Shown piece after piece: positions 2,198 to 60,798 of a stretch of 64,000 nt of DNA (the first letter of the stretch is position 1; every line of letters begins with the position of its first letter). Under the pieces are notes generated by a model. That model saw only the letters and a list, made by a program, of their open reading frames with translations. It was not told the DNA's origin and did no database searches. The DNA is from a virus. Location: IMG/VR virus record IMGVR_UViG_3300025684_000010; one strand, 5' to 3'. Both the position numbers and the translations under genes were made by a program.

Positions 2198-2815
2198 ATG
2201 TCAAACAACTTAAAAGAACTAACCCGCGCTCATCATGATAACGCAGAAAGAACAGAATTTGCAGATTTGTTATTAAGCGGTGAGATTAGTCCTAAACTAT
2301 ACCAAGAATACCTGCATGCTCAACTGCAGAACTATAGAGCTTTAGAAGGTGCGGTTTCTGTACCTATGGAACTAGAGCCTATCTTTAGATCAACCGCAAT
2401 AGAAGAAGATCTCCAAGAAATCGAATCTCTATATGATTTAGAAGAAATCGAAGATGATCTTCAGTCAACCAGAGAATACGTTAAACACATTCATACTTTA
2501 TCAGAAGACGGAAATAACGATGGCCTGATTGCCCATTTATATGTTCGTCATTTCGGTGATGCACATGGTGGTCAAATTATTAAACGTAATGTTCCTGGGT
2601 CAGGTCTTATGTATGAATTTGAAGATCGTAGAGAACTCATTGCATTAACGAGAGAACTGTTACACGACGGTATGGAAGCAGAAGCAAAGAACTGCTTTGA
2701 ATACGCAGAGAGATTGTTCCACGAATTAATTGAAAGGTTCCATAACAATCCAGAAGAATACGAATCAGAGAATTACGCTTTGGCTCGAAAGATGGGTACC
2801 TTCGAGGAAGAGTAA
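2198..2815 (+). CDS. hemO: Heme oxygenase (HemO/Ho1-like)
   Basis: LKELTRAHHDNAE proximal-His region and AHLYVRHFGDAHGGQII distal helix motif; adjacent to a bilin reductase. Confidence 0.88.
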   Translation: MSNNLKELTRAHHDNAERTEFADLLLSGEISPKLYQEYLHAQLQNYRALEGAVSVPMELEPIFRSTAIEEDLQEIESLYDLEEIEDDLQSTREYVKHIHTLSEDGNNDGLIAHLYVRHFGDAHGGQIIKRNVPGSGLMYEFEDRRELIALTRELLHDGMEAEAKNCFEYAERLFHELIERFHNNPEEYESENYALARKMGTFEEE

Positions 2816-3513
2816 TGATTGTTGATTCGGAACTATTCGACCAGTTAAGAAACCTTGCCGCAACGTTAATTAACGACTTTGACTCCTCAATGGATCGAGT
2901 TGAGAACAAAAACCATACGGCTGACCTTGAAGGCTGGAAAGATTACTTTTGGGAAAGCGATACGATTCGTAAAGCCCATCTTAAAACAATTGAACCTGTT
3001 GGAAAGAATAAGTTATGGTTAATGCATATCAATATCTTTCCAAGGGAACATGTTGATCTGCCTATCTTCGGATTAGATATTGTTGCGAATCCTAAAAAGA
3101 TTAGCGGTTGCTTTTGTGACTACTCTCCAATAGATGTTCTTCACAATGATAAACATCCGTATATGATTAAGTTTAGAACTGCGACCGAAGGCCTTGAATG
3201 GAAGAAAGAAAGAGTAATGCCAGATTGGGCGTTAGAGATCTTTTCGGAAAACATTGTAGGTGCTGGTGCAATTCGTTCTGGTGAAGAAACGGAACAACTT
3301 GTTAACATGGCTTTGGAACTATCAAGATTCTATACAATGGAGATGGACAATCCTCAATACACTAAGAGATGGATTAATACTCTTGAACGACAGAATAAGT
3401 ATTGTGAAAAACAAAAACTTAATAGAATGCTTCATAGTTCAATTTTGGCAATGGGAATAACCGAGGAACGTAAGAATCAATACGTAGAAAACGTACTCTT
3501 TCAGGAAGTCTAA
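2815..3513 (+). CDS. Ferredoxin-dependent bilin reductase, PcyA/PcyX-like
   Basis: RKAHL..., LMH(71), LPIFGLD(88)IVANP, CDYSP, PDWALEIFS align to PcyA His74/His88/Asp105 region; Q(N)KYC..QKLN C-terminal motif. Confidence 0.88.
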   Translation: MIVDSELFDQLRNLAATLINDFDSSMDRVENKNHTADLEGWKDYFWESDTIRKAHLKTIEPVGKNKLWLMHINIFPREHVDLPIFGLDIVANPKKISGCFCDYSPIDVLHNDKHPYMIKFRTATEGLEWKKERVMPDWALEIFSENIVGAGAIRSGEETEQLVNMALELSRFYTMEMDNPQYTKRWINTLERQNKYCEKQKLNRMLHSSILAMGITEERKNQYVENVLFQEV

Positions 3514-3651
3514 CCTATAACGAAATGTAATATAATCTATTACTAAATATAATATAAATTTATAGTGGTTTTTTCTTCAACTCTGTATATATATTTTCTG
3601 TTACAGACGGTAACATAAATTTGTTTAATATATACCTCAAGAAGGAGAGAA

Positions 3652-4914: not shown

Positions 4915-5841
4915 ATGGCACTAACAGACTTTTCTTCACTCAAGAAGAACCGCTCGAAGACTCTCGACAAGTTGAATTCACAACTCGAAAAGATTTCTTC
5001 AAAATCATACTCAGATCCGAACGCAGGAAAATTTTGGAAACCAACAAGAGATAAGGCAGGTAATGGCTTCGCAGTCATTAGATTCCTACCAGCCTCTAAA
5101 GGTGAAGAAATGCCTTTCGTACGAATTTGGGATCACGGTTTCCAAGGACCAACAGGCCTTTGGTATATCGAGAACTCGTTAACCACCTTAAATCAGGATG
5201 ACCCAGTATCAGAGTTTAACTCTAAGCTATGGAACTCTGGTGTTGAAGCTGATAAAGAACAAGCACGTAAACAGAAGCGCAGGCTGAAGTATACTGCTAA
5301 CGTCTATATCGTTAAAGACCCAGGCAATCCTGAGAACGAAGGTAAAGTATTCATGTATCAGTTCGGTAAGAAGATCTTTGATAAATTGAATGATCTAATG
5401 AATCCGACGTTTGAAGACGAAGAACCAACCAACCCGTTTGATTTATGGGAAGGTGCAAACTTTCGTCTAAAGATTCGTCAATTCGAAGGTTACCCGAACT
5501 ACGATAAATCTGAATTTGATCCATCCACTCCATTGTCAGACGATGATGAAGTATTGGAAAGAGTTTGGGGAGAACAACATTCTCTACAGGAATTAGTATC
5601 AGAAAGTAATTTCAAATCTTACACTGATCTAAGAACTAAATTGTATCGAGTACTTGATTTACAAAATGATGCACCGACTGCTTCGGCACCGGTTACTGAA
5701 ACGGCAGATGAATTGGATTTATCCAGTATGTCTAACGATACGTCTGAGCCAACAATGGCAACGGCAGAACCTTCAGTAGGCTCAACCGCTAGTGATGATG
5801 ATGATGACCTTAGTATTTTTAAGGAATTGGCACGTAGTTAA
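4915..5841 (+). CDS. 32: ssDNA-binding protein gp32
   Basis: FWKPTRDKAGNGFAVIRFLP, WYIENSLTTL, NYDKSEF, acidic tail; start moved to ATG 4915 after SD AGGAG. Confidence 0.97.
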   Translation: MALTDFSSLKKNRSKTLDKLNSQLEKISSKSYSDPNAGKFWKPTRDKAGNGFAVIRFLPASKGEEMPFVRIWDHGFQGPTGLWYIENSLTTLNQDDPVSEFNSKLWNSGVEADKEQARKQKRRLKYTANVYIVKDPGNPENEGKVFMYQFGKKIFDKLNDLMNPTFEDEEPTNPFDLWEGANFRLKIRQFEGYPNYDKSEFDPSTPLSDDDEVLERVWGEQHSLQELVSESNFKSYTDLRTKLYRVLDLQNDAPTASAPVTETADELDLSSMSNDTSEPTMATAEPSVGSTASDDDDDLSIFKELARS

Positions 5842-5850
5842 ACAACTGCC

Positions 5851-5875
5851 GGGGATCGCAAGGTCCCCTTTTTTT
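5851..5875 (+). terminator. Rho-independent terminator
   Basis: GGGGAT-CGCAAG-GTCCCC then T7. Confidence 0.9.
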
Positions 5876-5886
5876 AAGGAGGTCTT

Positions 5887-6171
5887 ATGACTATTGAAAA
5901 AGAAACTACAATCCTTGATTTCGATTTTGGTTTTACAGCTGTTGACGCCGATGAATTAGAAGTTGTTCAACAAGCAAAGGAAGCAGTTACTACAACCGCT
6001 GCGTCTGCTAATGCGAGCGCTGCTAAGGCCCAATTATTATATGATGCGGTAGTACCGCTATTGAATAACTTAAAAGCAAACCCCGAAAAGGATTACATCT
6101 ATTGGCCAAACCGATATGAGAAACTCGATGCGTTCGCCGATAAGTTATATACAATTCTAAGTGGAGAATAA
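5887..6171 (+). CDS. Conserved hypothetical protein
   Basis: Strong SD; DFDFGFTAVDADEL and LNNLKANPEKDYIYWPNR. Confidence 0.7.
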   Translation: MTIEKETTILDFDFGFTAVDADELEVVQQAKEAVTTTAASANASAAKAQLLYDAVVPLLNNLKANPEKDYIYWPNRYEKLDAFADKLYTILSGE

Positions 6172-6174
6172 AAT

Positions 6175-7245
6175 ATGAGTTTACTCGATAAAATGTTGAA
6201 GGCAGGTTCGGTCAAAGGATCTTCGGTTCTTTCCAAATCTAACTTCTTCCAAGCAAAGGATCCTATTAAAACAGATCTTCCTATCATTAATATTGCCTTT
6301 AGTGGTAGCCTTAACGGTGGTTTGATTCCTGGGTTAACAGTCCTAGCTGGTGTATCTAAAAGTTTCAAAACGCTTTTGGGTTTATATTGTATGAAGGCAT
6401 ACCTTGATAAGTATAAGGATGGCGTTGCTATTCTATATGATTCAGAATATGGTATTACGCCTGATTATTTAGAAAGTTTTGACATTGACATTGACCGTGT
6501 TATTCACGTGCCATTAGAAGATGTTGAGCAGTTAAAGTTTGATTTAACAAAACGTCTTGATGAAGTTAGTAAAGGCGATCATGTTATGATTCTGATTGAC
6601 TCAATTGGTAACCTTGCTTCGAAGAAAGAAGTCGAAGATGCCATGTCTGAGAAATCAGTTGCTGATATGTCGCGTGCAAAACAGATCAAGTCATTGTTCC
6701 GTATTGTTACACCTAAGCTGACTACACGTGATATTCCTTGTATCGCTATTAACCATGTATATCAGGAGATGGGATTATTTCCAAAAGCTGTTGTATCTGG
6801 TGGTACAGGTATTATGTATAGTGCAAACCAAGTATTCATTATTGGTAAAGCTCAGCAAAAGGATGGCAAAGATCTAGAAGGTTTCAAGTTTACTATTAAT
6901 ATTGAAAAGTCAAGATACGTTAAGGAAAAATCAAAACTTCCTTTCACTGTATTATTTGATAAAGGTATTCAGAAATGGTCATCGTTAATGGAATTGGCTT
7001 TGGAGTCAGGACATCTTGATTCTAAAACTCAAGGCTGGTATAACGAAATCAATATGGATACTGGTGAAGTACTTGAACCTAAACGCAGAGCTAAGGATAT
7101 TGAAAAGGACGATGCATTCTTTGAACGTCTAATTGCATGTCCAAAGTTTAATGAATACGTAGAACGCAAGTTTAAATTAAATGCAGCAGTAATGGGAGAT
7201 AATAATGTTAGAGAAGACGATCTTATCGAATCTGATACTGAATGA
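6175..7245 (+). CDS. uvsX: RecA-like recombinase UvsX
   Basis: AGVSKSFKT Walker A variant, YDSEYG, IDSIGNL, VVSGGTG. Confidence 0.96.
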   Translation: MSLLDKMLKAGSVKGSSVLSKSNFFQAKDPIKTDLPIINIAFSGSLNGGLIPGLTVLAGVSKSFKTLLGLYCMKAYLDKYKDGVAILYDSEYGITPDYLESFDIDIDRVIHVPLEDVEQLKFDLTKRLDEVSKGDHVMILIDSIGNLASKKEVEDAMSEKSVADMSRAKQIKSLFRIVTPKLTTRDIPCIAINHVYQEMGLFPKAVVSGGTGIMYSANQVFIIGKAQQKDGKDLEGFKFTINIEKSRYVKEKSKLPFTVLFDKGIQKWSSLMELALESGHLDSKTQGWYNEINMDTGEVLEPKRRAKDIEKDDAFFERLIACPKFNEYVERKFKLNAAVMGDNNVREDDLIESDTE

Positions 7246-8650
7246 GGATTTTTGCCGTAAGGTATTTCCATATTTAAAAGATGATTATTTCGATGATTTA
7301 GTTCTTCGTAGCGTATTTGAAACGGCTTCGGACTACTTGGAAAAGTACAAGGAGCCACCTTCATTAGAAGCTCTCAAGATTGCTGTTGATAAAAGAAAGG
7401 ATCTATCGGAAGATACGTATCAGGGTGTACACCAATTAGTTGACAGTATGTCAATTGATACGGACACTCAATTAGATTTCTTACTTGATGAAACTGAAAA
7501 GTTCTGTCAGGACAAAGATCTATATAATAGTATACGTAAATCCATTATGATCCTTGATGGCCAAGACTCTGAACTTGGCAAAGGAGAAATTCCAAAACTG
7601 TTATCCGATTCGTTGGGTATCAGTTTTGACTCTTCTGTCGGTCATGACTTCCTTGAAGATGTTGACGATCGTTATGAGCATTATCATCGCAAAGAAGAAC
7701 GCATTCCGTTCGATATAGAAATCTTAAACAAAATTACAAAAGGTGGCATACCTCGTAAATCTATGACTGTCTTGTTGGCAACAACAGGTGGTGGTAAGTC
7801 TTTACTTAAATGTCACATGGCAGCAAATCATTTGATGTTTGGTAAGAACGTATTATACATTACAATGGAAATGGCTGCAGAAGAAATCGGTCGTCGTATT
7901 GACGCAAACATTATGGATATTACACTCGACGAAGTTGCTGAAATACCTCGTGATGTATTTGAAAAACGAATGGCTCGATTAAAAGGCAAGACAACAGGCA
8001 AACTCATTGTGAAGGAGTTTCCAACAGGTTCTGCTCATAGCGGTCACTTCCGCCATCTGCTTAACGAATTGAAACTCAAAAAGAACTTTTCTCCTGATAT
8101 TATCTTTCTTGATTACTTGAACATCTGTTCATCTGCTCGAGTTAAAGGTGCAGCTGCAGCAAATAGTTATACTTTAGTAAAATCAATTGCAGAAGAAGTA
8201 CGTGGATTGGCAATGGAATACAATTGTGCAATCGTTACCTCTTCTCAGTATAATCGTGATGCGTATGGTAACTCTGACGTTGATCTAACAAATACATCTG
8301 AGTCAATGGGTATTACTCATACTGCTGACTGTATATTAGGTTTGGTCAGTTCTGAATATCTTGACGAAATGAATCAACTTATGATTAAACAGTTGAAGAA
8401 TCGTTGGGGAGACATCAGTTACTACCGTCGATTCCTTGTAGGTATTGAACGAGCAAAGATGAAGATCTATGAACTCGAAGAATCTGCCCAAGAGAATATT
8501 AATCTCGAGTCTCCATCTGGGGGTGGTGGGCAACATGCAAAAAAGAACTGGGATGATAGTTCGCCAGTCTTTGATAAGACCGACATTGGTATGAGACTGA
8601 ACAAACGCAAACCAGGCCAGAAAGTTTTTGGAGATGTTGCTTTAACTTAA
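7205..8650 (+). CDS. 41: Replicative helicase gp41
   Basis: ATTGGGKS Walker A, ITMEMAAE, DYLNIC, NTSESMG, QLKNRWG. Confidence 0.96.
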   Translation: MLEKTILSNLILNEDFCRKVFPYLKDDYFDDLVLRSVFETASDYLEKYKEPPSLEALKIAVDKRKDLSEDTYQGVHQLVDSMSIDTDTQLDFLLDETEKFCQDKDLYNSIRKSIMILDGQDSELGKGEIPKLLSDSLGISFDSSVGHDFLEDVDDRYEHYHRKEERIPFDIEILNKITKGGIPRKSMTVLLATTGGGKSLLKCHMAANHLMFGKNVLYITMEMAAEEIGRRIDANIMDITLDEVAEIPRDVFEKRMARLKGKTTGKLIVKEFPTGSAHSGHFRHLLNELKLKKNFSPDIIFLDYLNICSSARVKGAAAANSYTLVKSIAEEVRGLAMEYNCAIVTSSQYNRDAYGNSDVDLTNTSESMGITHTADCILGLVSSEYLDEMNQLMIKQLKNRWGDISYYRRFLVGIERAKMKIYELEESAQENINLESPSGGGGQHAKKNWDDSSPVFDKTDIGMRLNKRKPGQKVFGDVALT

Positions 8651-8657
8651 GTATCTG

Positions 8658-8665
8658 TATAAATA
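8658..8665 (+). promoter_or_regulatory. T4-type late promoter
   Basis: TATAAATA 30 bp upstream of ORF 8696. Confidence 0.7.
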
Positions 8666-8695
8666 ACTCTATAGATTAATTTTAATAGGTAACAG

Positions 8696-10123
8696 ATGAA
8701 GAGTTTCAATTCATATATAAAAGAAGCTAGTTTCTTAAAGCCTGACTACGTTATAGGACACAAAGTCGCTTTTAACGGAAAAGGCTTTAGGGAATTAGAT
8801 GCTTTAGGTTATAAACCCGGTGATCACTTTGAGATTATAGCACCAACCAAAGCTGACTATACTTATGGTGATGGTCCTGCAGAAAAGTATCTAAAAGCAC
8901 CAAACGGTAAAGTGATACATATGAAAGGAGCAACCGGTTTTAAATCGAGTTCCTTTACTCATGTTAAAGCTTCAGGTTCTCCACCAACAGGCGCGGAATG
9001 GGAAGATGTTATTGTTTACGCTTACAATAAACTCAACGGTAAATCAACAGACCCAGCAACAGTTGAAGTAGCAGAAAAGTTTAGTGACTATGCAGATGTT
9101 GCTAATAAAATCGCAACCAACTTCAATAACCAATTAAAAGCAAACCAGTTAGTGCAAACTGGTCGCGGCATGGGAGCTATTAGTTTAGGACCTATATGGA
9201 AAGAATCAGGTGCTAAGAACAAAACACCAAAGACTGATATTGCCTCCGCTGATTTCAAAGAAAAGATATCATTAAAGAAAGCAGGCGGATCTCAGCTTGC
9301 CTCACCAACCAAAGCAGAAGCTATCGCAATCGTTAAAGCAGCAATGTCGGAAATGGGCGAAGACAGAGCAATGGCAGCTAAACTTGTTAGTACAATGGAA
9401 ACTAATATGTCATCTCTAATATCGAGAGAGGCTGCTGGTGATTTGCGTAAACAATCAAAAGCTGGTGTAAAGACTGACGCAGTGATTGATTTTCAAGCAA
9501 AGGATAAAGGTAATAAAGAATTAACTAAAATGCTCGAAGGCCTTATTAATCAAGATACAGCAGTCAATGCTTTATTTAGTAAACATATTGTACTTGAGGC
9601 AGCAACCGGTAATCATAAGTTTGGTGGTGCAGGTTCTCCTGCCGCAGCTAACCTATTAGGTAAGTTCAGTCTAACAGGTGCTATTGAAGTTCAGCCTATC
9701 AATAGTATTAATGATCCTGTTATTGTTAAATATGCACAAACAGTCAAACCTGTCGTTTCATTTAAATCAGGTGGCGGGGGTGCTCCTGCCTATTCAGCAT
9801 TGCGTTTAGGTATTAAAGAATCAGAAACACTAAGAGGTATTGTGTTATCTGAAATGGAACAACTCGACGGTTTAATGTTAACCGAAGACTTTATTTCAGA
9901 AGGACCACTTGATATGTTAAAGAAAGCAGGTGATTGGGCAAAGGAAAAAGGTCAGGCGTTTGTAAATAAAGTTAAAGCCGCAGTTGCCAACGTTCTTGCT
10001 AAGATGAAAGCAATACTAACAAAGATCGCAAAGATGGGAAAGAAAATGTTTGCGAGTTTAATGAAGTTCTTCGGAGTAGAAGTAAGTTCAGCAACAGGCA
10101 TACCAGGAAATATTTCTTTATGA
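8696..10123 (+). CDS. Probable head-internal protein; possible PD-(D/E)XK-like nuclease domain
   Basis: CTS-like MKSFNSYIKE; TPKTDI...ISLKKAGGSQ motif. Confidence 0.55.
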   Translation: MKSFNSYIKEASFLKPDYVIGHKVAFNGKGFRELDALGYKPGDHFEIIAPTKADYTYGDGPAEKYLKAPNGKVIHMKGATGFKSSSFTHVKASGSPPTGAEWEDVIVYAYNKLNGKSTDPATVEVAEKFSDYADVANKIATNFNNQLKANQLVQTGRGMGAISLGPIWKESGAKNKTPKTDIASADFKEKISLKKAGGSQLASPTKAEAIAIVKAAMSEMGEDRAMAAKLVSTMETNMSSLISREAAGDLRKQSKAGVKTDAVIDFQAKDKGNKELTKMLEGLINQDTAVNALFSKHIVLEAATGNHKFGGAGSPAAANLLGKFSLTGAIEVQPINSINDPVIVKYAQTVKPVVSFKSGGGGAPAYSALRLGIKESETLRGIVLSEMEQLDGLMLTEDFISEGPLDMLKKAGDWAKEKGQAFVNKVKAAVANVLAKMKAILTKIAKMGKKMFASLMKFFGVEVSSATGIPGNISL

Positions 10124-10977
10124 AGGATTTTAAAACATTTGTTGACGAAGGTGCAAACGATCCTGCGATATTCAAAGCAATCTTTTTGGCAGGTGGCCCT
10201 GGCTCAGGTAAATCATATGTCGTTGGAAAAACTGCATTACCTATTCTTGGGTTCAAAGTTGTGAATTCAGATGATGCATTTGAAGCAGCAATGAATAAAG
10301 CTGGTTTAACAATGGATGCTGATACTATCTTTTCAACTCAAGGACAAGAGATTCGAGATAAAGCAAAGAAAGTAACAGACATGAGGATGACTGGTTATTT
10401 ACGTGGTCGTTTAGGATTAGTTATTGATGGAACAGGTAAGAACGCTGCTAAGATTCAAAAACAAGCAAAAGAGTTAAGAAGCTTGGGATATGATGTAGGG
10501 ATGATATATGTTAATACGGATTTAGATACTGCGATTGCTCGTAACGATGCAAGGCCAAGATCACTACCTATTCAACAAGTTACCGCATTATGGAAAGATG
10601 TTCAAAAGAACATTGGCGGATATCAGAAAATGTTTGGTCGTGACTTTATTATTATTGATAATTCAGAAGGCGCAAGTATCGAATCTAATATTACAGATGG
10701 TTATAAGTGGGCAACTAAATTTTCTAAGTCTGCTATTGAAAATCCTAAAGCAAAGAAATGGATTCAGTCTTACACAGAAGAATACCTGCCTGAAGCTGAT
10801 CTTGCTATGGCCTATGATGGCGTTATTGATTTAATACTTAAAGATCTTAAGAATAGGTTATCGCAAGATGTACGACGCAAAGACGTTAAGCTAGTTAACA
10901 ATATAGCAGGAATTGTAAAAAAGAAAGTAGAATTAGATTTTAAACATAAAGGTTACCTGAGGTTGAAAGACAAATGA
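10120..10977 (+). CDS. P-loop kinase (Pnk/zeta-toxin/AAA_33-like) with CTS-like N-terminus
   Basis: GGPGSGKS, NSDD, VIDGTG, ARNDARPR lid; MKDFKTFVDE. Confidence 0.75.
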   Translation: MKDFKTFVDEGANDPAIFKAIFLAGGPGSGKSYVVGKTALPILGFKVVNSDDAFEAAMNKAGLTMDADTIFSTQGQEIRDKAKKVTDMRMTGYLRGRLGLVIDGTGKNAAKIQKQAKELRSLGYDVGMIYVNTDLDTAIARNDARPRSLPIQQVTALWKDVQKNIGGYQKMFGRDFIIIDNSEGASIESNITDGYKWATKFSKSAIENPKAKKWIQSYTEEYLPEADLAMAYDGVIDLILKDLKNRLSQDVRRKDVKLVNNIAGIVKKKVELDFKHKGYLRLKDK

Positions 10978-12209
10978 AATCGTATAACCAATACCTTGCG
11001 GAAGCGGACGCAAACCTGCACATGACGCATCTTGAGGACGCTGTTCTCGATGGCGGTGTAAAAGGAACAAGAAACGTAATTAATTATATTCGTAATATTC
11101 GCGATATGCTATCAGGTAATACTAAGGCTCCTGTTAATATTACAACAAAGTGGGACGGAGCTCCTGCGATTTTTGCTGGTGTTGATCCTGCCGATGGTAA
11201 GTTCTTCGTAGCAAAGAAAGGAGTATTCAATAAAACTCCAAAGCTATATAAAACAGAAGCAGAAATAGATAATGATCTGAGCGGTGAACTCAATAGCAAA
11301 TTTAAAGTTGCTTTGAAAGAATTCGCTAAACTCGGAATAAGTGGAGTAGTACAAGGTGATTTCTTATATACGGATGACGATCTTAAAACGGAAGATATTG
11401 ATGGAGAATCGTGTGTTACTTTCCATCCTAATACCATTGTTTACGCGGTACCTAAAGCATCAGGACTCGGTAAGACAATTTCAGGATCAAAGATTGGTGT
11501 GGTCTGGCACACAACATACGCAGGATCAACTCTTGAAACAATGTCTGCAAGTTTTGGTATTGCGATCTCAACAAAACTTAACAAGGTTAAATCGGTCTGG
11601 CACGTAGACGCAACGTTTGAAGATAAGTCAGGTACAGCAACATTTACCGACGCAGAGAACAAAGCCCTAACTGCTCAGTTAAGTCAAGCAGGAGCATTGT
11701 TTAGAACAATAGATGCTAAGGTTCTAGGCGAACTCGGAACAAACGCAGATTTAAATCAAAAGGTAAATACTTTTATTAATACAAAGGTACGCGATGGTCA
11801 ACGTATTGGCGCGGTCAAACCTTTCGTTAAAGATTTACAAAAATACATACAAGAATATTATAAGAAAGAAGCAGATAAGCGTAAGACTCCTGCTGGCAAG
11901 AAAACTCAAATGGATAAAGCAACGTTAGCATTACAAATCTTTGCGGCTCCAGGTAATACGAAAAAACTCGAAGCTATATTTACTCTATATGATTTGATGG
12001 TCGATATGAAATATGTTATCATAGACAAATTAAATAAAGTTGGTGGTATTAAAACACTACTCAAAACAGCAAAAGGATTCGAAGTAACGGGTCAAGAAGG
12101 ATTTGTTGCGATTGACCATTATGGAAAGAATGCATTGAAGATTGTGGATCGTATGGGATTCAGTCTTGCTAACTTCTCAGATCAATATATCAAAGGTTGG
12201 CAGAAATAA
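10974..12209 (+). CDS. Conserved myophage protein with ligase/nucleotidyltransferase-like motifs and CTS-like N-terminus
   Basis: TTKWDGAP, VQGDFLY, QEGFVAID, LKIVDR; MKSYNQYLAE. Confidence 0.6.
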   Translation: MKSYNQYLAEADANLHMTHLEDAVLDGGVKGTRNVINYIRNIRDMLSGNTKAPVNITTKWDGAPAIFAGVDPADGKFFVAKKGVFNKTPKLYKTEAEIDNDLSGELNSKFKVALKEFAKLGISGVVQGDFLYTDDDLKTEDIDGESCVTFHPNTIVYAVPKASGLGKTISGSKIGVVWHTTYAGSTLETMSASFGIAISTKLNKVKSVWHVDATFEDKSGTATFTDAENKALTAQLSQAGALFRTIDAKVLGELGTNADLNQKVNTFINTKVRDGQRIGAVKPFVKDLQKYIQEYYKKEADKRKTPAGKKTQMDKATLALQIFAAPGNTKKLEAIFTLYDLMVDMKYVIIDKLNKVGGIKTLLKTAKGFEVTGQEGFVAIDHYGKNALKIVDRMGFSLANFSDQYIKGWQK

Positions 12210-12212
12210 GTA

Positions 12213-12241
12213 TTGACATTGCGTCTTAATTTTGTTATAAT
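12213..12241 (+). promoter_or_regulatory. sigma70 promoter for kinase/glyco cassette
   Basis: TTGACA-17-TATAAT. Confidence 0.85.
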
Positions 12242-12274
12242 ATAACTTCTATAATATGAATAAGGTGATCCTTA

Positions 12275-12814
12275 ATGAAAGACGTGACAGTCATAAACTT
12301 CTACGGCGGACCAGGCTCAGGTAAATCTACCGCTGCGGCCGGTTTATTCTATCAAATGAAAATCGCAGGCTATAATGTCGAACTGACAGATGAGTTTGCT
12401 AAAGAGTGCGTATGGGAAGGTAACATACCAATGTTGGCAGATCAACTTTGGGTACTCGGTCATCAACACAGAAAAATATTACGATTATCCGATAAGGTAG
12501 ATTATATCATTACCGATAGTCCTGTACTCTTAAGTCCAATATATCGTGAACGTTACGGCAAGGCAATCTATTCAGATCTAATTGACCAAATGGCATTTGA
12601 ATGTTATAAGCTATATAATCACAATATCAATTTTATGTTAACAAGACCTGAAGGTTTTGACCAACAAGGTAGAGCACAGGATATAGATGAGTGTATTTTA
12701 ATTGATGAAGCAATCATGGAACAATTTGACCGACTTGATATTGGATATATAAATTTAGATTCTAACGACAACGCATCGGCTGCAATGAGATATATTAAGA
12801 GACTATGGACATAA
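12275..12814 (+). CDS. NadR-type/AAA_28 P-loop kinase
   Basis: INFYGGPGSGKST, EFAKECVWE, IITDSP. Confidence 0.7.
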   Translation: MKDVTVINFYGGPGSGKSTAAAGLFYQMKIAGYNVELTDEFAKECVWEGNIPMLADQLWVLGHQHRKILRLSDKVDYIITDSPVLLSPIYRERYGKAIYSDLIDQMAFECYKLYNHNINFMLTRPEGFDQQGRAQDIDECILIDEAIMEQFDRLDIGYINLDSNDNASAAMRYIKRLWT

Positions 12815-13479
12815 GTATTGAAAAGAAGATGACCCACATTTGGATAGGACCTAATCCTGCTCCATTGAAGTGGATGAATACTTGGCCAGAGAAAATGCCT
12901 GACTGGGAGTATTCAGTATTCACAGACGATATGTTACATAAACGCAAATGGTATAACCAACATTTAATTGAAGAGTATTATAGACAAAAGTGTTGGGCAG
13001 GAGTTGCTGATTTAATTCGTTATGAGTTAATATACGAGAGAGGTGGCTTTTGGCCTGAAGCAGATTCAGAATGTTATCACGACGTTAGTGAACTATTCGT
13101 TGAAGATCCAAACTTAGCATATACTGTATTTGAAAAGGAAGATGTAATACCGAGATCTATATCTCCAATCATGGCAGCAAACCCAGGCAATAAATTCCTT
13201 GATGTTATATTGAGAAAACTCCATACATTAAGACCTGGTGATTTAGATCCAAAGCCACACGAATCAACAGGAAACTTCTTCTTAGCAAGATTACTTGATG
13301 GCACTCGTCACTTACTACATATCTTTCCTTCTTACACATTTATACCTCAATGGTTTCGTCCTGGGTATCCAAGGTATGATGGGCCAGGTAAAATATACGC
13401 AGAACAACATTGGGGTTCAACTGCAACTGATTTAGGTCTCCCAGACACAACAAAACAATATAATGAAGGCATAGAGTGA
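12805..13479 (+). CDS. GT32/OCH1-like glycosyltransferase
   Basis: HIWIG, ADLIRYELIYERGG(FWPEAD), MAANPGNKFL. Confidence 0.75.
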   Translation: MDISIEKKMTHIWIGPNPAPLKWMNTWPEKMPDWEYSVFTDDMLHKRKWYNQHLIEEYYRQKCWAGVADLIRYELIYERGGFWPEADSECYHDVSELFVEDPNLAYTVFEKEDVIPRSISPIMAANPGNKFLDVILRKLHTLRPGDLDPKPHESTGNFFLARLLDGTRHLLHIFPSYTFIPQWFRPGYPRYDGPGKIYAEQHWGSTATDLGLPDTTKQYNEGIE

Positions 13480-14144
13480 TTCACGTAGAAATATTAGGCT
13501 TAGGACATCCAAGGACAGGAACTGGTTATACAAGTAAAGTATTATCAGATTGGGGTTTCGATGTTGGCCATGAAGTAATGGGTAAGCAAGGTATTGTATC
13601 TTGGTTATTAGTTAAACCAAAAGGACCCTATTTGTGGCAGAAGGGATTTGATAGAAGACCAACATATGACCATTTAGTATATAATACACGAGACCCAAAA
13701 ACCTCTCTTGCTTCAATTGTATATACTGAAACACCACCCTGTGATAAAGATGGAACTAGTTGGTGTGGTACAAAGTATTACCAAAACTTCAACTATTCAA
13801 ATTTTGATTACGACTCGACATACTTTCGTAAACAATTTATTGGATTAAATAGTGACAACCCAATAGAAAACGCAATTGATAGTATATGTCAGTTCCATGA
13901 AATGATTCTACGCTGTCGCCCAAATGTACAATATAGAATTGAGAACGAAGAACAGAAATTATTTAATTACTTTAAATCTTTCTATCCAAGCATTGAATAT
14001 ATAGAACACCCAAATAAAGAAAACACTCGAAAGCATAAATCGTTTGAACAGATGGCAGAGGAATTTCCAACACCATCTAAACAACACATAGACAGAATTA
14101 ACCATTACGCAATGGCGTGTGGGTATGATAAGGTAGAATTTTGA
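13476..14144 (+). CDS. Sulfotransferase-like protein
   Basis: GHPRTGTGY PAPS-binding loop, RDP..SLAS, YRIE. Confidence 0.6.
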   Translation: MIHVEILGLGHPRTGTGYTSKVLSDWGFDVGHEVMGKQGIVSWLLVKPKGPYLWQKGFDRRPTYDHLVYNTRDPKTSLASIVYTETPPCDKDGTSWCGTKYYQNFNYSNFDYDSTYFRKQFIGLNSDNPIENAIDSICQFHEMILRCRPNVQYRIENEEQKLFNYFKSFYPSIEYIEHPNKENTRKHKSFEQMAEEFPTPSKQHIDRINHYAMACGYDKVEF

Positions 14145-14824
14145 AAGCTTATATATTAACACATGACCATCCAACATCTCGAGAATACGCAAAGACTTGT
14201 TCTGATTCTTGCGATCTTGTTGGTTTAGATTGGGAGTACTTTGAAGGTTGGTCTCATTGTACTGGTCGTATGGCGTGGTGTGAAACCGGAATCAAAATGA
14301 AATTCCACGAACCTATGCTTTACGTTCCTGAACCAAACATGCATCACAAAGCAAACACATGTTCTGCAGGTCACGCTGCTATTTGGAAAAAGATCGCCGA
14401 AGGTGAAGATAACGTTGGTATTGTATTAGAACACGATGCTATTATGTATTATAAACCAGACATCAAAATACCGGATAACTATTTAATTACGTTAGGATAT
14501 AAATTATCAGAATTACGTTATGATTATAAAGAAGGTAATAAACAACCACGGAAATTGATTAATATAGATGGTCATGAAGGTGCCCATGCTTATATGATGA
14601 CAAAAAGAACAGCCCAAAACTTAATTCACGAAATAGAAGAGCAAGGTATATTAGGAGCAGTTGATAACGCATACTTTATTCGTGGACAGAGAAGAACCAA
14701 GATACCACTTGTGATTATGTCTCCAACCCCTGCTGTAGGATATTTAAGAGATTCTACGATATGGGATGAGTCAGCGCACGTTAACTACGAATTTATAGAC
14801 AGCTTCGCTAATTATTATAAATAA
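14141..14824 (+). CDS. GT25-like glycosyltransferase
   Basis: CSAGHAAIWKKI, IVLEHDA, GAHAYMMT, VDNA. Confidence 0.7.
   Translation: MKAYILTHDHPTSREYAKTCSDSCDLVGLDWEYFEGWSHCTGRMAWCETGIKMKFHEPMLYVPEPNMHHKANTCSAGHAAIWKKIAEGEDNVGIVLEHDAIMYYKPDIKIPDNYLITLGYKLSELRYDYKEGNKQPRKLINIDGHEGAHAYMMTKRTAQNLIHEIEEQGILGAVDNAYFIRGQRRTKIPLVIMSPTPAVGYLRDSTIWDESAHVNYEFIDSFANYYK
14816..14823 (+). promoter_or_regulatory. T4-type late promoter
   Basis: TATAAATA. Confidence 0.65.
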
Positions 14825-14859
14825 AAACATTAGCAAACTAAAAATTAGGAAATACTTAC

Positions 14860-16635
14860 ATGGATCGCTTAAACGAAGCAGATGATACATCGATTGCGGC
14901 TGGATCTGTAAAGGATTACACAGATACCGACAAAATAAAAGATTCTTCTAATAAAGATATCAAGAAGCGTAAAGATAAGAAAAAAGATCAAGACGAAAAC
15001 GATATCATTCAGAAAGATACCAAACGTACTTTTGATGCAACAAAGTATATTGATACTGAACCGCGCATTAACGAAGCTGTTACAGCAACAGCAGTTGCCA
15101 CATTTGGTCGTATGAATCCGCCAACAGTCGGTCATGAAAAATTAGTTAATGCGATTATCAAAAAAGCAATCTCGGTTAAAGGTACTCCATTAGTATACCT
15201 ATCAAAAACGCAAGATGCCAAAAAGAATCCATTATCGTATGATGATAAGATTAAGTTTGGTCAAGCTCTATTCGGTAAAAGGATGATTGTTAAATCAAAC
15301 GCAAAAACAATTATACAAGTTGCACAAGAATTACAAAAGAAAGGCTATAAGGATTTAGTTTTAGTTGTTGGTTCAGATAGAGTTAAAGAATTTGATACAT
15401 TGCTAAACAAATATAACGGTAAAGATTATACGTTTGATAGTATTGAAGTTGTTTCTGCTGGTGAACGTGATCCTGACTCTGATGGTGTTGATGGAATGTC
15501 AGCAAGCAAGATGAGAGCATTGGCAGCAGATGGTAATTTTGACGAATTCGTTAAAGGAATTCCAACAAGAAACGATAAAATAAGGTTAGACTTATATACA
15601 GCGGTTCGTGATGGATTGGGTATTAACGAACAAACCAATTTTGCGGTAAGTCAGTTTCTTGCAGAAAGAGTTAAGGCAGGTAAGGTTGATCCTTTATCAG
15701 CAATGGGTAAACAAAAACTAACAGGCGCTGAAGTTGCCAGTTATTATAAATCAAACCCAACTGCAAAATCTGCGGCTAATCGAGACAAGAATGTTAAATT
15801 AGCAATTGAACTTGCGTTGGATTTATCAGGTAATATGAATTACGCAGTTAAAGAAATTGATAAACTCAAACGCAATCTATCAAAACATCCTGAAGTTCAA
15901 AAGGCTTTAAGATCTGCAAATGAATCCTCCAACATTGACTTATATCGAGCAGCTTCTATTCAAGAAAGAATGCAGAAAGAAGCCGATAAAGAATCCAAAC
16001 AACAAAAACAACAACCTGGGTATTATAAAGATCTAGGTGGTTCTACTAAAGATAAACGTCAAGCACATTTCAATAAAAAGTCAAAGATGGACGACGACAA
16101 TCCTGATGCTTATGATAAGGCACCTGGTGATGCAGAAGCTAAAACAAAACCATCTAAGCATTCAAACAAGTTTAAGAAAATGTTTGGCGAAGCAGTAGAT
16201 CGTAATATGGAACGTGCAGGTTTAAAAAGACCACATCAACTATTAAGACAAGACAACACTGTTAACTTCGATTATAGATTCAAGATGTATCGTTCTGCCA
16301 AAGAAGCAGAAGCATTAGAGAAACAACGAGCAGTGATTGAATCAGAGATTACAGACCAAAGAATAGACGAGTTAGAACAGTTGATTGAACAAGTAGAATT
16401 CGTATCAGAAAAATCAAACCCTGAAAAATCATTAAAGGATAAAGCTGAGAAATCAGGAATGCCTTATGGTATATTAAAGAAAGTATTTGATAGAGGTGTT
16501 GCTGCTTGGAGAACAGGCCATCGTCCTGGTACAACTCCAGTACAATGGGGATTGGCAAGAGTAAATAGTTTTGCTACAAAATCACCAGGTACATGGGGTA
16601 AAGCTGATAAAGATTTGGCCGACAAAGTTAAATAA
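14860..16635 (+). CDS. HxGH cytidylyltransferase-family domain fused to several small virion-type modules
   Basis: TFGRMNPPTVGH, VVGSDR, SAGERDPD, MSASKMR; C-terminal GILKKVFDRGVAAWRTGHRPGTTPVQWGLARVNSF module. Confidence 0.8.
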   Translation: MDRLNEADDTSIAAGSVKDYTDTDKIKDSSNKDIKKRKDKKKDQDENDIIQKDTKRTFDATKYIDTEPRINEAVTATAVATFGRMNPPTVGHEKLVNAIIKKAISVKGTPLVYLSKTQDAKKNPLSYDDKIKFGQALFGKRMIVKSNAKTIIQVAQELQKKGYKDLVLVVGSDRVKEFDTLLNKYNGKDYTFDSIEVVSAGERDPDSDGVDGMSASKMRALAADGNFDEFVKGIPTRNDKIRLDLYTAVRDGLGINEQTNFAVSQFLAERVKAGKVDPLSAMGKQKLTGAEVASYYKSNPTAKSAANRDKNVKLAIELALDLSGNMNYAVKEIDKLKRNLSKHPEVQKALRSANESSNIDLYRAASIQERMQKEADKESKQQKQQPGYYKDLGGSTKDKRQAHFNKKSKMDDDNPDAYDKAPGDAEAKTKPSKHSNKFKKMFGEAVDRNMERAGLKRPHQLLRQDNTVNFDYRFKMYRSAKEAEALEKQRAVIESEITDQRIDELEQLIEQVEFVSEKSNPEKSLKDKAEKSGMPYGILKKVFDRGVAAWRTGHRPGTTPVQWGLARVNSFATKSPGTWGKADKDLADKVK

Positions 16636-37126: not shown

Positions 37127-37155
37127 AAATGGTGGTTAAACGTATGGTGTAATCG

Positions 37156-37209
37156 TTAAGTATTTGTATAAATATACTTTATGGCTTATTCTAAAAAGTT
37201 TTAGACAGA
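37156..37209 (+). repeat. Direct repeat copy 1 (late promoter + truncated iscU start)
   Basis: 54 bp identical to 37510-37564 except for one missing A; reads ATG GCT TAT TCT AAA AAG TTT TAG. Confidence 0.92.
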
Positions 37210-37225
37210 AAGGATTTTATAAGAT

Positions 37226-37513: not shown

Positions 37514-37564
37514 GTATTTGTATAAATATACTTTATGGCTTATTCTAAAAAAGTTTTAGACAGA
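37510..37564 (+). repeat. Direct repeat copy 2 (late promoter TATAAATA 37521-37528 + intact iscU start)
   Basis: TTAAGTATTTGTATAAATATACTTTATGGCTTATTCTAAAAAAGTTTTAGACAGA. Confidence 0.92.
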
Positions 37565-57808: not shown

Positions 57809-57815
57809 ATCTCCC

Positions 57816-59861
57816 TTATTTAGAAGTGGCAATGAACACACCATTCCAGTCTTTAGGTAGATCTTGAGTCTTCATATATTCACAACGCTCAATCCACATT
57901 GTATAATAACCTTTCATCTGTCCTTCGAAGCATTCCATTAAATCATTACATATTTTAATTGCTTTATCAAAGTTTTGTTTCTGATAATTCATATACATGG
58001 CTTCATGCATTTCAATAGGTTTAAGATACTTATCTTTATTTAAATCAAGTACAGTATGTATTCCTACACCAACCGTCTTACCTTTTACTGCAAGATCATC
58101 TACTTTTAAGAAAAGGAATTCTTCAGGATTACATCTGTTAACTGTTTCTTCTCCTACTAATAATAGGCATCCATATTCTTTACATTTAGATTCGATCCTT
58201 GCAGCAGTTGATACTGCATCTCCAAGTATATCGTAACTGTGTCGTGATGTACTTCCCATTTCACCAATATAACCAAGACCGCTATTAATGCCAGCACCCA
58301 TACCAATAGGTGGTCGTCCTTCTTTAACAATCTTATCATTAAACTTCTCCACTGCTCTTAACATACGTATACCTGTTCTTACCGCAGATTTTGCGTGGTC
58401 TTCGTCTTCCATTGGAGCATTATGTATATGCATACTTGCGTCTCCAATGTACTTGATTATCATTCCATTCGCATCTAAGACAGGTTGCGTGATAGCGTCC
58501 ATATAACCATTCATAAGATCAGTCAGTCCTCTAACATCATCTCCAAAGGATTCGCCTAATGGTGTAAACCCTCTCAGATCTGAAAAGACAATACTTACAT
58601 CTTTTTTCATTCCTTCCTTGACAAGTCCTGGGTTTTGTTGTAAAATAGTAACAACTTCAGGAGAACAGTAACCAGCGAATTGTTTCATGATTTCGCGTTT
58701 TTCTAAAAATGTTAAATAGTATTTGTTAAAAGAAGATTGTGCAAACACCACTAAGGATCCCAATGAAATCAAAGTTGCGTCAACAAATGTTAAAGAAGCA
58801 GTCCAAAGGTAATGACTCACTCCGTATGCAGAACCGACGAGAGCAAGAGACGTTACCACCCCAAGACCTATGGGTAAAATATAGACCGCTGCAAGGATAC
58901 CTAGACTCACTAAAACCAGAAAGGCAAGCTCGAATATTGCAGACCAGTCGGGAATGCGTATTTCGTATCCTGAAAGCAAGGTCTGAATCAACTGAGCTTG
59001 AACTTCGTGGGGATACATTGCACCCGTTGGGGTTGCGACTGGATTAGAATAGCCTTCGGCGGTTATTCCAAAGACAAGTACTTTTCCTGCTGGTAATGGA
59101 TCAGTGATACTTACTTGTTTGAATTGATTCCAAAAGGCAATAGGTACTTCAGCATTACTATTTGTTGTAATAGGATCTTGACGACCCATACGAATCCATT
59201 CCACTCCTTGTGGACCTACCTTCATTTGATAGGAAGACTCTCCAGAGAAGACCCGCAAAGTTTCAAGAGCGAGACTGGGATATTGATTTCCTGCTGCATT
59301 GACAACAAGTGGGCTTCTTCGCACAATCCCAGTTGGTTCGTCAGGTACTGCAAGTACACCGCCAATGCCAAAGGCAAAACTAGAAAGGTCATCAATGGGA
59401 TAAAGTAAGCCCGGAATATTGTAGAGCCAGTTTGCATCTTGGTCACCAAATGTAGCAACACCGACAAAGTTGCCTACACCTCCGCTTGTTTGTTGAGTTG
59501 GAGCAGAAGCCAATACAACAGCCTTGGTTGCCATTGCTTCCTGTAATAAATGATCTTCTTTGAATCTATCTGCTTCTGAATAAATTACATTGAGTATATA
59601 AAGAGAATCGTCAGGCCCAGACTCAATATACTTAGCCACAGAACCACGAGGCCAAGGATATTGACCTTCGGCGGAGATTGCGGCTTCGTCGATGTTGACG
59701 AGGACCACGTCTTCAATAATCTCTTTTTCTTTAGCCTGCTGTAACGAGTCATAGTAAGCGTATTCTATACTTTGTATAATGTCCGGGTTAGATACTGACA
59801 GAACTCCAAATCCTGCGATAGTAAGTAATACCGTCCACCATTGGGTTAACGTTTTAAACAT
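57816..59861 (-). CDS. CHASE2-domain class III adenylate/guanylate cyclase
   Basis: VNIDE..GQYPWPR (CHASE2), three TM helices, FSDLRGFT, KYIGDA, GAGINSG, YDILGDAVSTAARIES. Confidence 0.93.
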   Translation of the reverse strand: MFKTLTQWWTVLLTIAGFGVLSVSNPDIIQSIEYAYYDSLQQAKEKEIIEDVVLVNIDEAAISAEGQYPWPRGSVAKYIESGPDDSLYILNVIYSEADRFKEDHLLQEAMATKAVVLASAPTQQTSGGVGNFVGVATFGDQDANWLYNIPGLLYPIDDLSSFAFGIGGVLAVPDEPTGIVRRSPLVVNAAGNQYPSLALETLRVFSGESSYQMKVGPQGVEWIRMGRQDPITTNSNAEVPIAFWNQFKQVSITDPLPAGKVLVFGITAEGYSNPVATPTGAMYPHEVQAQLIQTLLSGYEIRIPDWSAIFELAFLVLVSLGILAAVYILPIGLGVVTSLALVGSAYGVSHYLWTASLTFVDATLISLGSLVVFAQSSFNKYYLTFLEKREIMKQFAGYCSPEVVTILQQNPGLVKEGMKKDVSIVFSDLRGFTPLGESFGDDVRGLTDLMNGYMDAITQPVLDANGMIIKYIGDASMHIHNAPMEDEDHAKSAVRTGIRMLRAVEKFNDKIVKEGRPPIGMGAGINSGLGYIGEMGSTSRHSYDILGDAVSTAARIESKCKEYGCLLLVGEETVNRCNPEEFLFLKVDDLAVKGKTVGVGIHTVLDLNKDKYLKPIEMHEAMYMNYQKQNFDKAIKICNDLMECFEGQMKGYYTMWIERCEYMKTQDLPKDWNGVFIATSK

Positions 59862-60798
59862 TCTTTCTGAATTCTTTTACTGTATTAATTAGATTCCTTA
59901 CATTCTCAACTGGAGTTGTTTTATCAATACCATGAGCAAGGTTTACAATGTAAGGTCTATCTTTCATCTTTTCGAGAACAGGAGTAATATCTTCTCCTTT
60001 AATTAATCTCTTAACAGATATGCCACCCTGAATTACTTCACCATTAATTTCGTCAACTGGTAAATCATCACTAATATTAATTGCATCAGGATTTACTTGT
60101 TCAATATAATCATTAATTAATGGACCTACTAATCGTGGGAATGCGATAATACATACTTCAGGATACCAAACTCTTACTACATCAACTATTGTTTTTGTTG
60201 GTGTAATTACAAATTCTTGAAAGTCCTCATTAGATATTTCACCTGCATGAGAATCAAAGATTTGTACTGTATCACAACCTGCTTCTATTTGGTGTAATAA
60301 GTGATTAATAATATATGGTATTAGTTTTTGTACGACATCTAATTTTTGTTCACCATCACACATGTATTTACATAATGTCCATGGAGCTGCCGCAAATCCA
60401 ATTAGAGATTTACTGTCGTCAAGTTCTTCTCTTACCTTTCTTATTGCTTCATAAACGGGTTCACACCTTTCTAAAAAAGTATCAAGTGGAGTATCGAAGA
60501 ATGATTCTTTATATGGACCTAAGTCAGGGGAAGGATTATAATCGAGTTCTTGGCCGAGTGCGTAATTAATTACAAGTATATCACTAAAGATAATTGCTGC
60601 ATCCATATCAAATTCTAATATAGGTTGCATTGTGATTTCAGCTGCCTTCCATGGAGTCATTGCCATGTCTAAGAAACCATTCGATTTTGCTTTCATTGCC
60701 ATATACTCTGGCATGTATCGACCTGCTTGTCTCATTAACCAAACTGGGTATAGGTTTGTTTCTTTATCTTGTATGACTCTTTGTAATAGTGTTTTCAT
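59854..60798 (-). CDS. hemE: Uroporphyrinogen decarboxylase
   Basis: PVWLMRQAGRYMPEY, AAIIFSDIL, LIGFAAAPWT, QIFDS, NLAHG. Confidence 0.93.
   Translation of the reverse strand: MKTLLQRVIQDKETNLYPVWLMRQAGRYMPEYMAMKAKSNGFLDMAMTPWKAAEITMQPILEFDMDAAIIFSDILVINYALGQELDYNPSPDLGPYKESFFDTPLDTFLERCEPVYEAIRKVREELDDSKSLIGFAAAPWTLCKYMCDGEQKLDVVQKLIPYIINHLLHQIEAGCDTVQIFDSHAGEISNEDFQEFVITPTKTIVDVVRVWYPEVCIIAFPRLVGPLINDYIEQVNPDAINISDDLPVDEINGEVIQGGISVKRLIKGEDITPVLEKMKDRPYIVNLAHGIDKTTPVENVRNLINTVKEFRKNV

Follow-up and report, generated by a model that had tools for sequence, protein, structure and literature searches.

Tetrapyrrole genes of an uncultured marine T4-like phage are probably scattered modules, not one operon-like pathway

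Introduction

Why would a phage that carries no photosynthesis genes encode enzymes that make heme as well as enzymes that destroy it? The question is raised by a 64,000-nucleotide stretch of viral DNA, IMG/VR record IMGVR_UViG_3300025684_000010 (hereafter, the window), which carries genes for serine hydroxymethyltransferase (SHMT; glyA), 5-aminolevulinate (ALA) synthase (ALAS; alaS, also called hemA), uroporphyrinogen decarboxylase (URO-D; hemE), heme oxygenase (hemO) and a ferredoxin-dependent bilin reductase (FDBR). The initial annotation of the window had read these five genes as a dispersed but single route from glycine through heme to a bilin. This interpretation is partly supported by the analysis presented here: it is half right, and less novel than its author thought. 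The tetrapyrrole genes are scattered modules and not one operon-like pathway. They are probably best explained as mix-and-match auxiliary genes that would boost steps 1, 3 and 5 of heme synthesis in the host and cleave heme late, with glyA serving chiefly one-carbon metabolism.

Five Intact Genes in the Window

The five genes are located as follows:

2198–2815 (+): hemO, HO-1-type heme oxygenase, 205 amino acids; PF01126, 80 bits against a cut-off of 23
2815–3513 (+): ferredoxin-dependent bilin reductase, PcyX-like; PF05996, 66.7 bits
31421–32623 (+): alaS (hemA), 5-aminolevulinate synthase, 400 amino acids; TIGR01821, 556 bits against a cut-off of 338
35327–36487 (+): glyA, serine hydroxymethyltransferase, 386 amino acids; NF000586, 558 bits against a cut-off of 335, and PF00464, 490 bits
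59854–60798 (−): hemE, uroporphyrinogen decarboxylase, short phage form, 314 amino acids; PF01208, 236 bits

In this respect the initial annotation was accurate, as every gene lies where it had been placed, with its family match and its catalytic residues intact. Pairwise ratios of nonsynonymous to synonymous substitution rates (dN/dS) against relatives range from 0.06 to 0.19 over the five genes: 0.08–0.13 for alaS, 0.13–0.19 for glyA, 0.10–0.15 for hemE, 0.07–0.14 for FDBR, and 0.056 for hemO, the last from one of three comparisons because dS was saturated in the other two. These low values are comparable to those of the phage's own nrdB (0.05–0.06) and gp32 (0.08–0.09), and thus all five genes encode proteins under purifying selection.

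Nine related IMG/VR contigs were fetched whole and compared gene by gene with the window. One of them, G021 (89 kb), carries hemO, FDBR, alaS and glyA arranged as in the window, and G001 (156 kb), G011 and G007 each carry alaS and hemE. In the complete genome G003 (IMGVR_UViG_3300022921_000002; 221 kb, CheckV 100%), FDBR and alaS are 28 kb apart, a spacing like that of the window, and hemE, hemC and glyA were not found.

ALA Synthase and Its Neighborhood

The assignment of ALAS is supported by several comparisons. The next-best family, KBL, gives 310 bits, below its own cut-off of 460, and the closest solved structure is that of the C. crescentus ALAS (E 3e-131). The lysine that holds pyridoxal phosphate (PLP) lies in TLGKAFG, aligned to TLAKAFG of the C. 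crescentus enzyme (7X98). The C-terminus (...LQETFKHVH) contains no Cys, so that the heme ligand of bacterial feedback regulation is lacking. This Cys is a regulatory trait of ALAS and does not define the family; the same C-terminal heme-ligand residue is absent from many viral AlaS (PMC11480375).

alaS sits within the nrdAB unit, 28.6 kb from hemO and FDBR. It was found in more than 85 IMG/VR viral stretches, and the closest ~30 place it exactly between nrdB and a gene designated orf292. Its neighbors in the window are:

28389–31407 (+): nrdA and glutaredoxin-nrdB, directly 5′ of alaS; PF00268 and PF00462
32628–33506 (+): orf292, conserved predicted membrane protein, which follows alaS in most close relatives

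The end of nrdB is 13 bp from the alaS ATG, and this junction is kept in more than 30 loci. Directly 3′ of alaS, orf292 is present in nearly all loci that reach far enough and whose alaS is at least ~75% identical; the two genes are co-located down to 49% identity, with longer forms of orf292 at 49–53%. The orf292 protein has no Pfam, NCBIfam or PHROG match, and the hydrophobic segments at its N- and C-termini (alignment A2) resemble membrane spans. A role as a hidden HemB or HemD was considered and rejected because of these membrane-like termini and the lack of a family match. orf292 may work together with the phage ALAS or simply adjoin its gene.

HemE, Its Operon and the Remaining Heme Genes

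HemE matches PF01208 over profile positions 4–346 of 346. Solved HemE structures align with its motifs RQAGRYMPEY, IIFSDIL, APWTLCKYM, IFDSHAG and NLAHGI, none of which varies in alignment A1. We take the retained residues to be Arg37, Arg41, Asp86, Tyr164, Ser219 and His339 in human numbering. In the alignment, HemE keeps the equivalents of every residue predicted to bind or protonate uroporphyrinogen.

The gene is present in 17 IMG/VR contigs at 63–83% identity. When 5.8 billion proteins were searched, the matches fell into three tiers: short forms of 311–315 amino acids at 63–97% identity, long forms of 335–343 amino acids at 49–56%, and named cellular enzymes at ~40%. A pattern scan of 185,579 GTDB species genomes with the nearest long form (P0059), which reaches close relatives only, returned only matches of ~35% identity or less, besides one weak partial match. 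Given these tiers and the species-genome scan without a close match, the family looks like an old, largely virus-borne lineage. A scan of genome contigs with the hemE alignment gave no match, PHROGs has no HemE family, and full-text searching of the literature found no report of a viral hemE or uroporphyrinogen decarboxylase.

In the window, hemE is flanked by genes of the same strand:

57816–59861 (−): gene for a CHASE2/class III nucleotidyl cyclase; PF05226 and PF00211
60896–63559 (−): orf269, a FecR-domain gene (PF04773) and a gene that weakly matches CsgA, all 5′ of hemE within its operon

hemE overlaps the start of the cyclase gene by 8 nt, and it lies between orf269 and the cyclase gene in 14 of the 17 loci. 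The order of the operon is csgF-csgG-curlin-like-FecR-orf269-hemE-cyclase, where csgG and csgF are known from the relative G001; there, the operon has the replication block on one side and the genes for the gp23 capsid and scaffold proteins on the other. The same operon is kept in G002 and G042, with orf269 directly adjoining the cyclase gene. As the operon is intact without hemE in these two contigs, hemE is an accessory gene inserted into it and does not belong to its core.

The initial annotation had proposed that the rest of the genome be searched for further heme genes, ferredoxin and bilin-binding genes. This check spanned 43 related viral contigs for hemB and the five closest for hemD and plant-type ferredoxin. 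It brought to light hemC in collinear relatives but no hemB, hemD, ferredoxin or bilin-binding genes. In G001, hemC encodes a full-length porphobilinogen deaminase (PF01379 and PF03900, 280 amino acids), 8.4 kb from hemE and adjoining gp23. Of the eight hemE loci whose flanks extend far enough, seven include hemC, although three of these seven (L004, L005 and L015) may be near-identical strains, and G002 is without both genes. hemB (PF00490) is absent from all 43 contigs, and neither hemD nor Fer2 was detected in the five closest relatives. Genes for later steps were seen only in a distant contig, G017 (IMGVR_UViG_3300023174_003114), a candidate virus with an alaS 65% identical to that of the window, an oxygen-dependent coproporphyrinogen oxidase gene (hemF) and a terminal ferrochelatase fragment (features 2–337, 30029–30907 and 36047–37237). 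The steps that the genes of this phage lineage are predicted to cover are step 1 (ALAS), step 3 (HemC, seen in relatives) and step 5 (HemE), plus two catabolic steps. Since they were not found in relatives (hemN, hemG, hemY and hemJ were not searched), HemB, HemD and the steps from coproporphyrinogen to heme would have to be supplied by the host.

Several observations weigh against counting hemE as an aid to heme synthesis. The protein scores 243.8 bits against TIGR01464, in two matched stretches and under the equivalog cut-off of 302.95, and it has an internal deletion, is missing ~17–25 residues of canonical HemE and is 25–50 residues shorter than canonical enzymes. The gene is absent from G002 and G042, collinear relatives that carry both alaS and glyA, and the hemE-positive G038 has no hemC. 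In the phage of the window, hemC should lie ~5–6 kb past the end of the window by collinearity, a placement taken from relatives only. Moreover, hemE stands among non-heme genes in three viral contexts. Apart from the curli/FecR/cyclase operon, these are L016 (IMGVR_UViG_3300018420_004001, 5356–13632), where the homologue lies among five genes for Asp/Asn beta-hydroxylase-like cupins and one for a tryptophan-halogenase-type flavoenzyme, and L268 (IMGVR_UViG_3300017751_003243, 8242–16490), where it is beside a KdsA-like (DAHP_synth_1) gene and two radical S-adenosylmethionine (radical-SAM) genes, one of them with SPASM; no homologues of other window proteins lie near hemE in L268.

Such neighbors, together with the sub-threshold score and the short length, would fit a URO-D-family protein that is not a heme enzyme here and acts on another carboxylated substrate, as part of the curli/FecR/CHASE2-cyclase module or of variable-island chemistry. 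The 8-nt overlap with the cyclase gene and the embedding in the operon in 14 of 17 loci point the same way, as does the lack, in GTDB species genomes, of any relative at least 50% identical to the nearest long form. Nevertheless, this role is distinctly improbable: all uroporphyrinogen-binding and catalytic residues are retained, hemC accompanies hemE in seven of the eight loci spanning the two sites, G002 lacks the pair altogether, and the operon persists without hemE in G002 and G042.

glyA and One-Carbon Metabolism

The weak link in the proposed glycine-to-bilin route is glyA, which was found in at least 132 IMG/VR stretches, mostly with no alaS within 10 kb. Among the 80 glyA loci fetched, alaS lies within that distance only in the clade of 81–98% identity. 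The clade of 72–78% identity has glyA at another site, between homologues of window genes 12275 and 12805. There are therefore two alternative sites within one collinear lineage, either after a small glutaredoxin gene or between the 12275 and 12805 homologues (G002 134360–135469, G020 and G012), and glyA has evidently moved or been re-acquired within the lineage.

Elsewhere, glyA is directly 3′ of thyX (L180–182), and alaS, FDBR and hemE are all missing from large glyA-positive contigs such as G024 (155 kb) and G035 (131 kb). The T4-like Aeromonas phages 44RR2.8t and phage 31 encode a full-length SHMT that is ~50% identical, and searches for alaS and hemE found nothing there, which supports a role of phage SHMT in nucleotide and one-carbon metabolism. 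The consumers of its other product, methylene-tetrahydrofolate (methylene-THF), are at hand: a divergent PF00303 gene (dCMP-hydroxymethylase-like) occurs in relatives G001, G021 and G008, and the window itself encodes a ThyX:

27676–28374 (+): thyX, methylene-THF-consuming thymidylate synthase; PF02511, 141 bits

One methylene-THF is spent per dTMP and per hydroxymethyl-dCMP, and one glycine is formed per SHMT turnover. Glycine would thus reach ALAS as a side product of SHMT turnover that meets a far greater need for one-carbon units. The earlier view of glyA as a dedicated supplier of glycine is unsupported in the light of its frequent occurrence without alaS nearby, its place beside thyX in other lineages and its two sites in this one; glyA probably serves chiefly nucleotide synthesis.

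Heme Oxygenase and the Bilin Reductase

The first base of the FDBR ATG is shared with the hemO stop codon. Although the PF01126 match of HemO spans residues 2–131 only, alignment with human HO-2 shows that the proximal His (TRAHHDNAE) and the distal helix GDAHGGQ (GDxxGGQ) are retained. FDBR loci number 25 in IMG/VR, one of them 99–100% identical to the window, and the order lipase(−)/hemO/FDBR/gp59/gp32 is observed wherever the locus extends far enough.

The closest solved structure to FDBR is that of PcyX (5OWG, E 1e-25), followed by PcyA (E 1e-11); against the PcyA equivalog NF002760 it scores 99 bits, below the cut-off of 206. The equivalents of PcyA His88 and Asp105 are retained (LMH and FGLDIVA), of which His88 is a mark of the PcyA/PcyX group (PMC13446030). 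At the position of PcyA Glu76, a residue essential for 18-vinyl reduction in PcyA, PcyX carries Asp and its product is phycoerythrobilin (PEB) (PMC13446030). The window FDBR has Lys at this position (AHLKT/GHLKI), and this Lys is invariant in 19 distinct members of its clade, down to 53% identity. The enzyme is therefore filed as PcyX-like and not as PcyX, and its product cannot be assumed to be PEB or phycocyanobilin. In effect, there are two viral FDBR clades, as the reductases of cassettes in which FDBR adjoins alaS have Asp at the Glu76 position, like PcyX, and share just 34–36% identity with the clade of the window.

Promoters and Predicted Timing

The window contains 19 perfect TTGACA-17-TATAAT sites, all on the + strand, against 0.02 expected. 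They include those at 3810, 3909, 3985, 12213, 19285, 26038, 26578, 35170 and 60835, and several share the extended box TTGACATTCTTTATGA. These perfect sigma-70 sites appear to define early transcription units of the phage. The motifs of most relevance to the tetrapyrrole genes are:

26578–26606 (+): perfect TTGACA-17-TATAAT promoter, which heads the primase-thyX-nrdA-nrdB-alaS-orf292 unit
35170–35198 (+): perfect sigma-70-type promoter, ~130 nt 5′ of glyA
2143–2150 (+): TATAAATA, T4 late-promoter-type motif, 48 nt 5′ of the hemO ATG

A terminator-like hairpin at 37101–37120 closes the glyA-orf200 unit. None of the 19 perfect sites precedes hemO. In G001, the minus-strand operon that contains hemE is headed by TATAAATA, as are the neighboring structural genes, and hemC lies ~700 nt downstream of a perfect sigma-70 site. 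TATAAATA is not significantly enriched across the window (12 sites against 8 expected), and only its positions just 5′ of start codons are suggestive. From these motifs, alaS, glyA and hemC are predicted to be early, and hemE, hemO and FDBR late.

Within the gap of 97 bp that separates hemE from orf269 is the perfect promoter at 60835–60863 (+), antisense to the minus-strand curli/FecR operon. No + strand open reading frame (ORF) of at least 80 amino acids begins in or just past this gap.

One Route, Two Economies or Separate Modules

How might such a set work? According to the preferred explanation, ALAS, without its heme-ligand Cys, would be transcribed early together with thyX and nrdAB and would open the committed step. 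HemC and HemE would pull the added ALA-derived flux through polymerization and past the uroporphyrinogen branch point towards heme, which would also avert a build-up of phototoxic intermediates. Late, heme oxygenase and the bilin reductase would split heme into Fe2+, carbon monoxide (CO) and a reduced bilin. Meanwhile, SHMT would mainly supply methylene-THF to ThyX and to the dCMP-hydroxymethylase-like enzyme, with glycine for ALAS as a side benefit. To the difficulties listed for hemE it must be added that building heme only to destroy it is not obviously economical, and that the early and late assignments come solely from consensus motifs.

The initial annotation went further and took the five genes as one coordinated route in which the bilin (or CO) is wanted and glyA was recruited for glycine. 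The phage does encode the committed Shemin step, one step in the middle of the pathway and the pair that turns heme into a bilin. A single linear route is unsupported, as the genes lie in separate transcription units with differing predicted timing, two collinear relatives with alaS have no hemE, and hemB and hemD were not found in any relative searched. There is something to be said for coordination nonetheless. In more distant phages (L078–L090 and L096), alaS forms a cassette with FDBR (and with hemO, according to PMC11480375), which speaks for a functional link between the making of ALA and the making of bilins; the predicted timing follows the order of the pathway steps, and FDBR is strongly conserved. 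On the other hand, no bilin-binding protein, lyase, phytochrome/GAF protein or ferredoxin was found in the window or in the relatives searched, glyA is distributed independently of alaS and stands beside thyX elsewhere, hemE and hemC are dispensable in collinear relatives, and the complete G003 has alaS and FDBR with no hemE, hemC or glyA. Likewise, in phage Mosig, which encodes a PcyX-like FDBR (along with hemO, as given in the supplement of PMC11480375), searches for alaS and hemE gave no match. All in all, a coordinated glycine-to-bilin route is unlikely.

An alternative is that two economies coexist, in which hemO and FDBR strip iron from host heme proteins late, to the benefit of Fe–S and di-iron enzymes of the phage, FDBR merely clearing biliverdin, and alaS, hemC and hemE separately supply heme for respiration, with no flux from ALA to bilin intended. 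A phage demand for iron is suggested by the di-iron NrdB with its fused glutaredoxin and by two iron–sulfur (Fe–S) genes:

656–982 (−): IscA-like Fe–S assembly gene, beside lipase, hemO and FDBR in related loci; PF01521, 50 bits
37535–37978 (+): iscU (NifU_N) Fe–S scaffold gene, with TATAAATA at 37521–37528; PF01592, 141 bits

Iron supply is also discussed in PMC11480375, and hemO and FDBR are indeed in transcription units separate from those of the synthesis genes. However, the alaS-FDBR cassette of other phages ties synthesis to cleavage, the strictly kept His/Asp site of the four-electron type and the clade-specific Lys suggest that bilin chemistry matters, and heme synthesis itself consumes iron. 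Such a division of labor is conceivable, if on balance rather doubtful.

A bolder version of the preferred explanation would turn the predicted timing into a staged program, with glyA, a feedback-insensitive alaS and hemC early, and hemE, hemO and the Lys-variant reductase late, so that a late bilin and iron arise from flux made by the phage and not from heme already present in the host. This program is speculative and, read from motifs and residues, seems unlikely to hold in full. If true, the bilin might itself be novel and serve some function in a host that is not photosynthetic, possibly one tied to the FecR/CHASE2-cyclase module.

The Phage and Its Relatives

The window derives from an uncultured marine T4-like phage that has pelagimyophages and the Methylophilales phage Melnitz as relatives but is separate from both. 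No exact match to a 41-mer of the window was found in IMG/VR. The window is AT-rich throughout, with a uniform GC content of 34–40%, and nearly all its genes are on the + strand, except for two short minus-strand blocks at the ends. Its replication genes are of T4 type (gp59, gp32, UvsX-like RecA, gp41-like helicase and RNase H), and it further encodes primase, ThyX, NrdA, the glutaredoxin-NrdB fusion, Cpn10, IscU, bS21, DNA ligase, PhoH and several glycosyltransferases; the T4-like genes for gp23 and the scaffold protein are present in the collinear relative G001. Families of photosystem, ferredoxin, GAF/phytochrome and bilin lyase proteins are represented neither among the ~70 annotated ORFs of the window nor in five related contigs, which bears out, over this range, the earlier claim of a phage without photosynthesis genes.

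The curli operon, bS21 and an nrdB whose DNA resembles that of Melnitz place the phage in a broad pelagimyophage-like group. The gp41 helicase is ~49–54% identical to homologues of Melnitz, cyanomyophages and Caulobacter phage Cr30 alike, and no cultured phage is close. Cultured phages have no true alaS or hemE; every match, at 35% identity or less, is bacterial contamination or transduced bio genes.

The stretch of the cyclase gene and hemE has the highest GC content of the window (0.40 versus ~0.36) and lies on the opposite strand, features that might be expected if the co-occurrence of these genes were an assembly artefact, by host–phage chimerism or host contamination. The initial annotation had named a chimeric contig as a finding that would overturn it. 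A chimera was rejected on synteny: each gene is bracketed by T4-like genes, its junctions are found again in many independent IMG/VR assemblies from different samples, and the hemE operon of G001 stands between replication genes and gp23. The probability of an artefact is accordingly negligible.

Among the other genes of the window, one at 19320–20768 (+) encodes a 482-amino-acid fusion of a RimK-like ATP-grasp ligase and a putative ATP-dependent zinc protease domain, with 81–92% identity in relatives.

Comparison with Known Systems

Viral tetrapyrrole genes are an active topic, and most of the heme synthesis and bilin gene set described here was already published between 2020 and 2024. The initial annotation knew of no upstream supply genes that occur with hemO and pcyX; in fact, alaS with hemO and pcyX was published in 2024 (PMC11480375), and other heme genes in 2020 (PMC7029224). 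Wegner et al. (2024, Nat Commun; PMC11480375) described valaS on contigs of both marine and freshwater phages, either standing alone or joined to hemO and pcyA/X in hemO-pcyA/X-alaS cassettes that are complete or broken, and assigned the marine contigs to pelagimyophage-like phages. The freshwater vAlaS, vHemO and vPcyA are active and the heme-regulatory residues of viral ALAS are missing, while the purpose of the hemO/FDBR pair in phages of non-photosynthetic hosts was called enigmatic.

Like those loci, the window belongs to a marine T4-like phage with a Shemin-type ALAS, a heme oxygenase and a reductase of the AX clade, and its ALAS likewise has the PLP lysine and no C-terminal heme-ligand Cys. 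In contrast to the three-gene cassette, alaS of the window is not adjacent to hemO and FDBR and so matches the broken or stand-alone class. The lineage also differs by the addition of hemE, hemC (in relatives) and glyA, none of which is mentioned in PMC11480375 or its supplements, and by an FDBR of a separate clade. Short ALAS and FDBR peptides of the window do not occur in the text of that supplement, which may be incomplete. PcyX itself (EBK42635, PDB 5OWG), a phage phycoerythrobilin synthase, is also paired with hemO in a non-cyanophage marine phage and shares the His and Asp equivalents, but the window FDBR has Lys where PcyX has Asp and PcyA has Glu76.

A second group of relatives is formed by the pelagimyophages, for which a curli cluster, hemC, hemF (coproporphyrinogen oxidase), ferrochelatase and heme oxygenase were described (Zaragoza-Solas 2020, PMC7029224). 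The phage of the window resembles these and Melnitz (Buchholz 2022, PMC9004378) in its csgG/csgF operon between replication and structural modules, and in bS21, ThyX and NrdAB; in the text of both papers as searched, hemE, alaS, glyA, FecR and the CHASE2 cyclase are unmentioned. Uroporphyrinogen is likewise named neither in PMC7029224 nor in PMC11480375. Finally, HemE shares the URO-D fold family and active-site residues with cellular enzymes such as human UROD (1URO), from which (~340–365 amino acids) the phage form is set apart by its length of 311–315 amino acids, its internal deletion, an identity of ~40% and its occurrence in a group seen on viral-type contigs.

Set against these systems, the apparently new elements are a viral HemE lineage inserted in a curli/FecR/cyclase operon, the pairing of hemC with hemE, an FDBR clade with a basic residue (Lys) at a catalytic position, and the predicted split between early synthesis and late cleavage. 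The comparison also corrects the idea of phage SHMT as part of a bilin route. With alaS, hemC, hemE, hemO and FDBR, plus glyA, this is the largest tetrapyrrole set documented here in one phage group.

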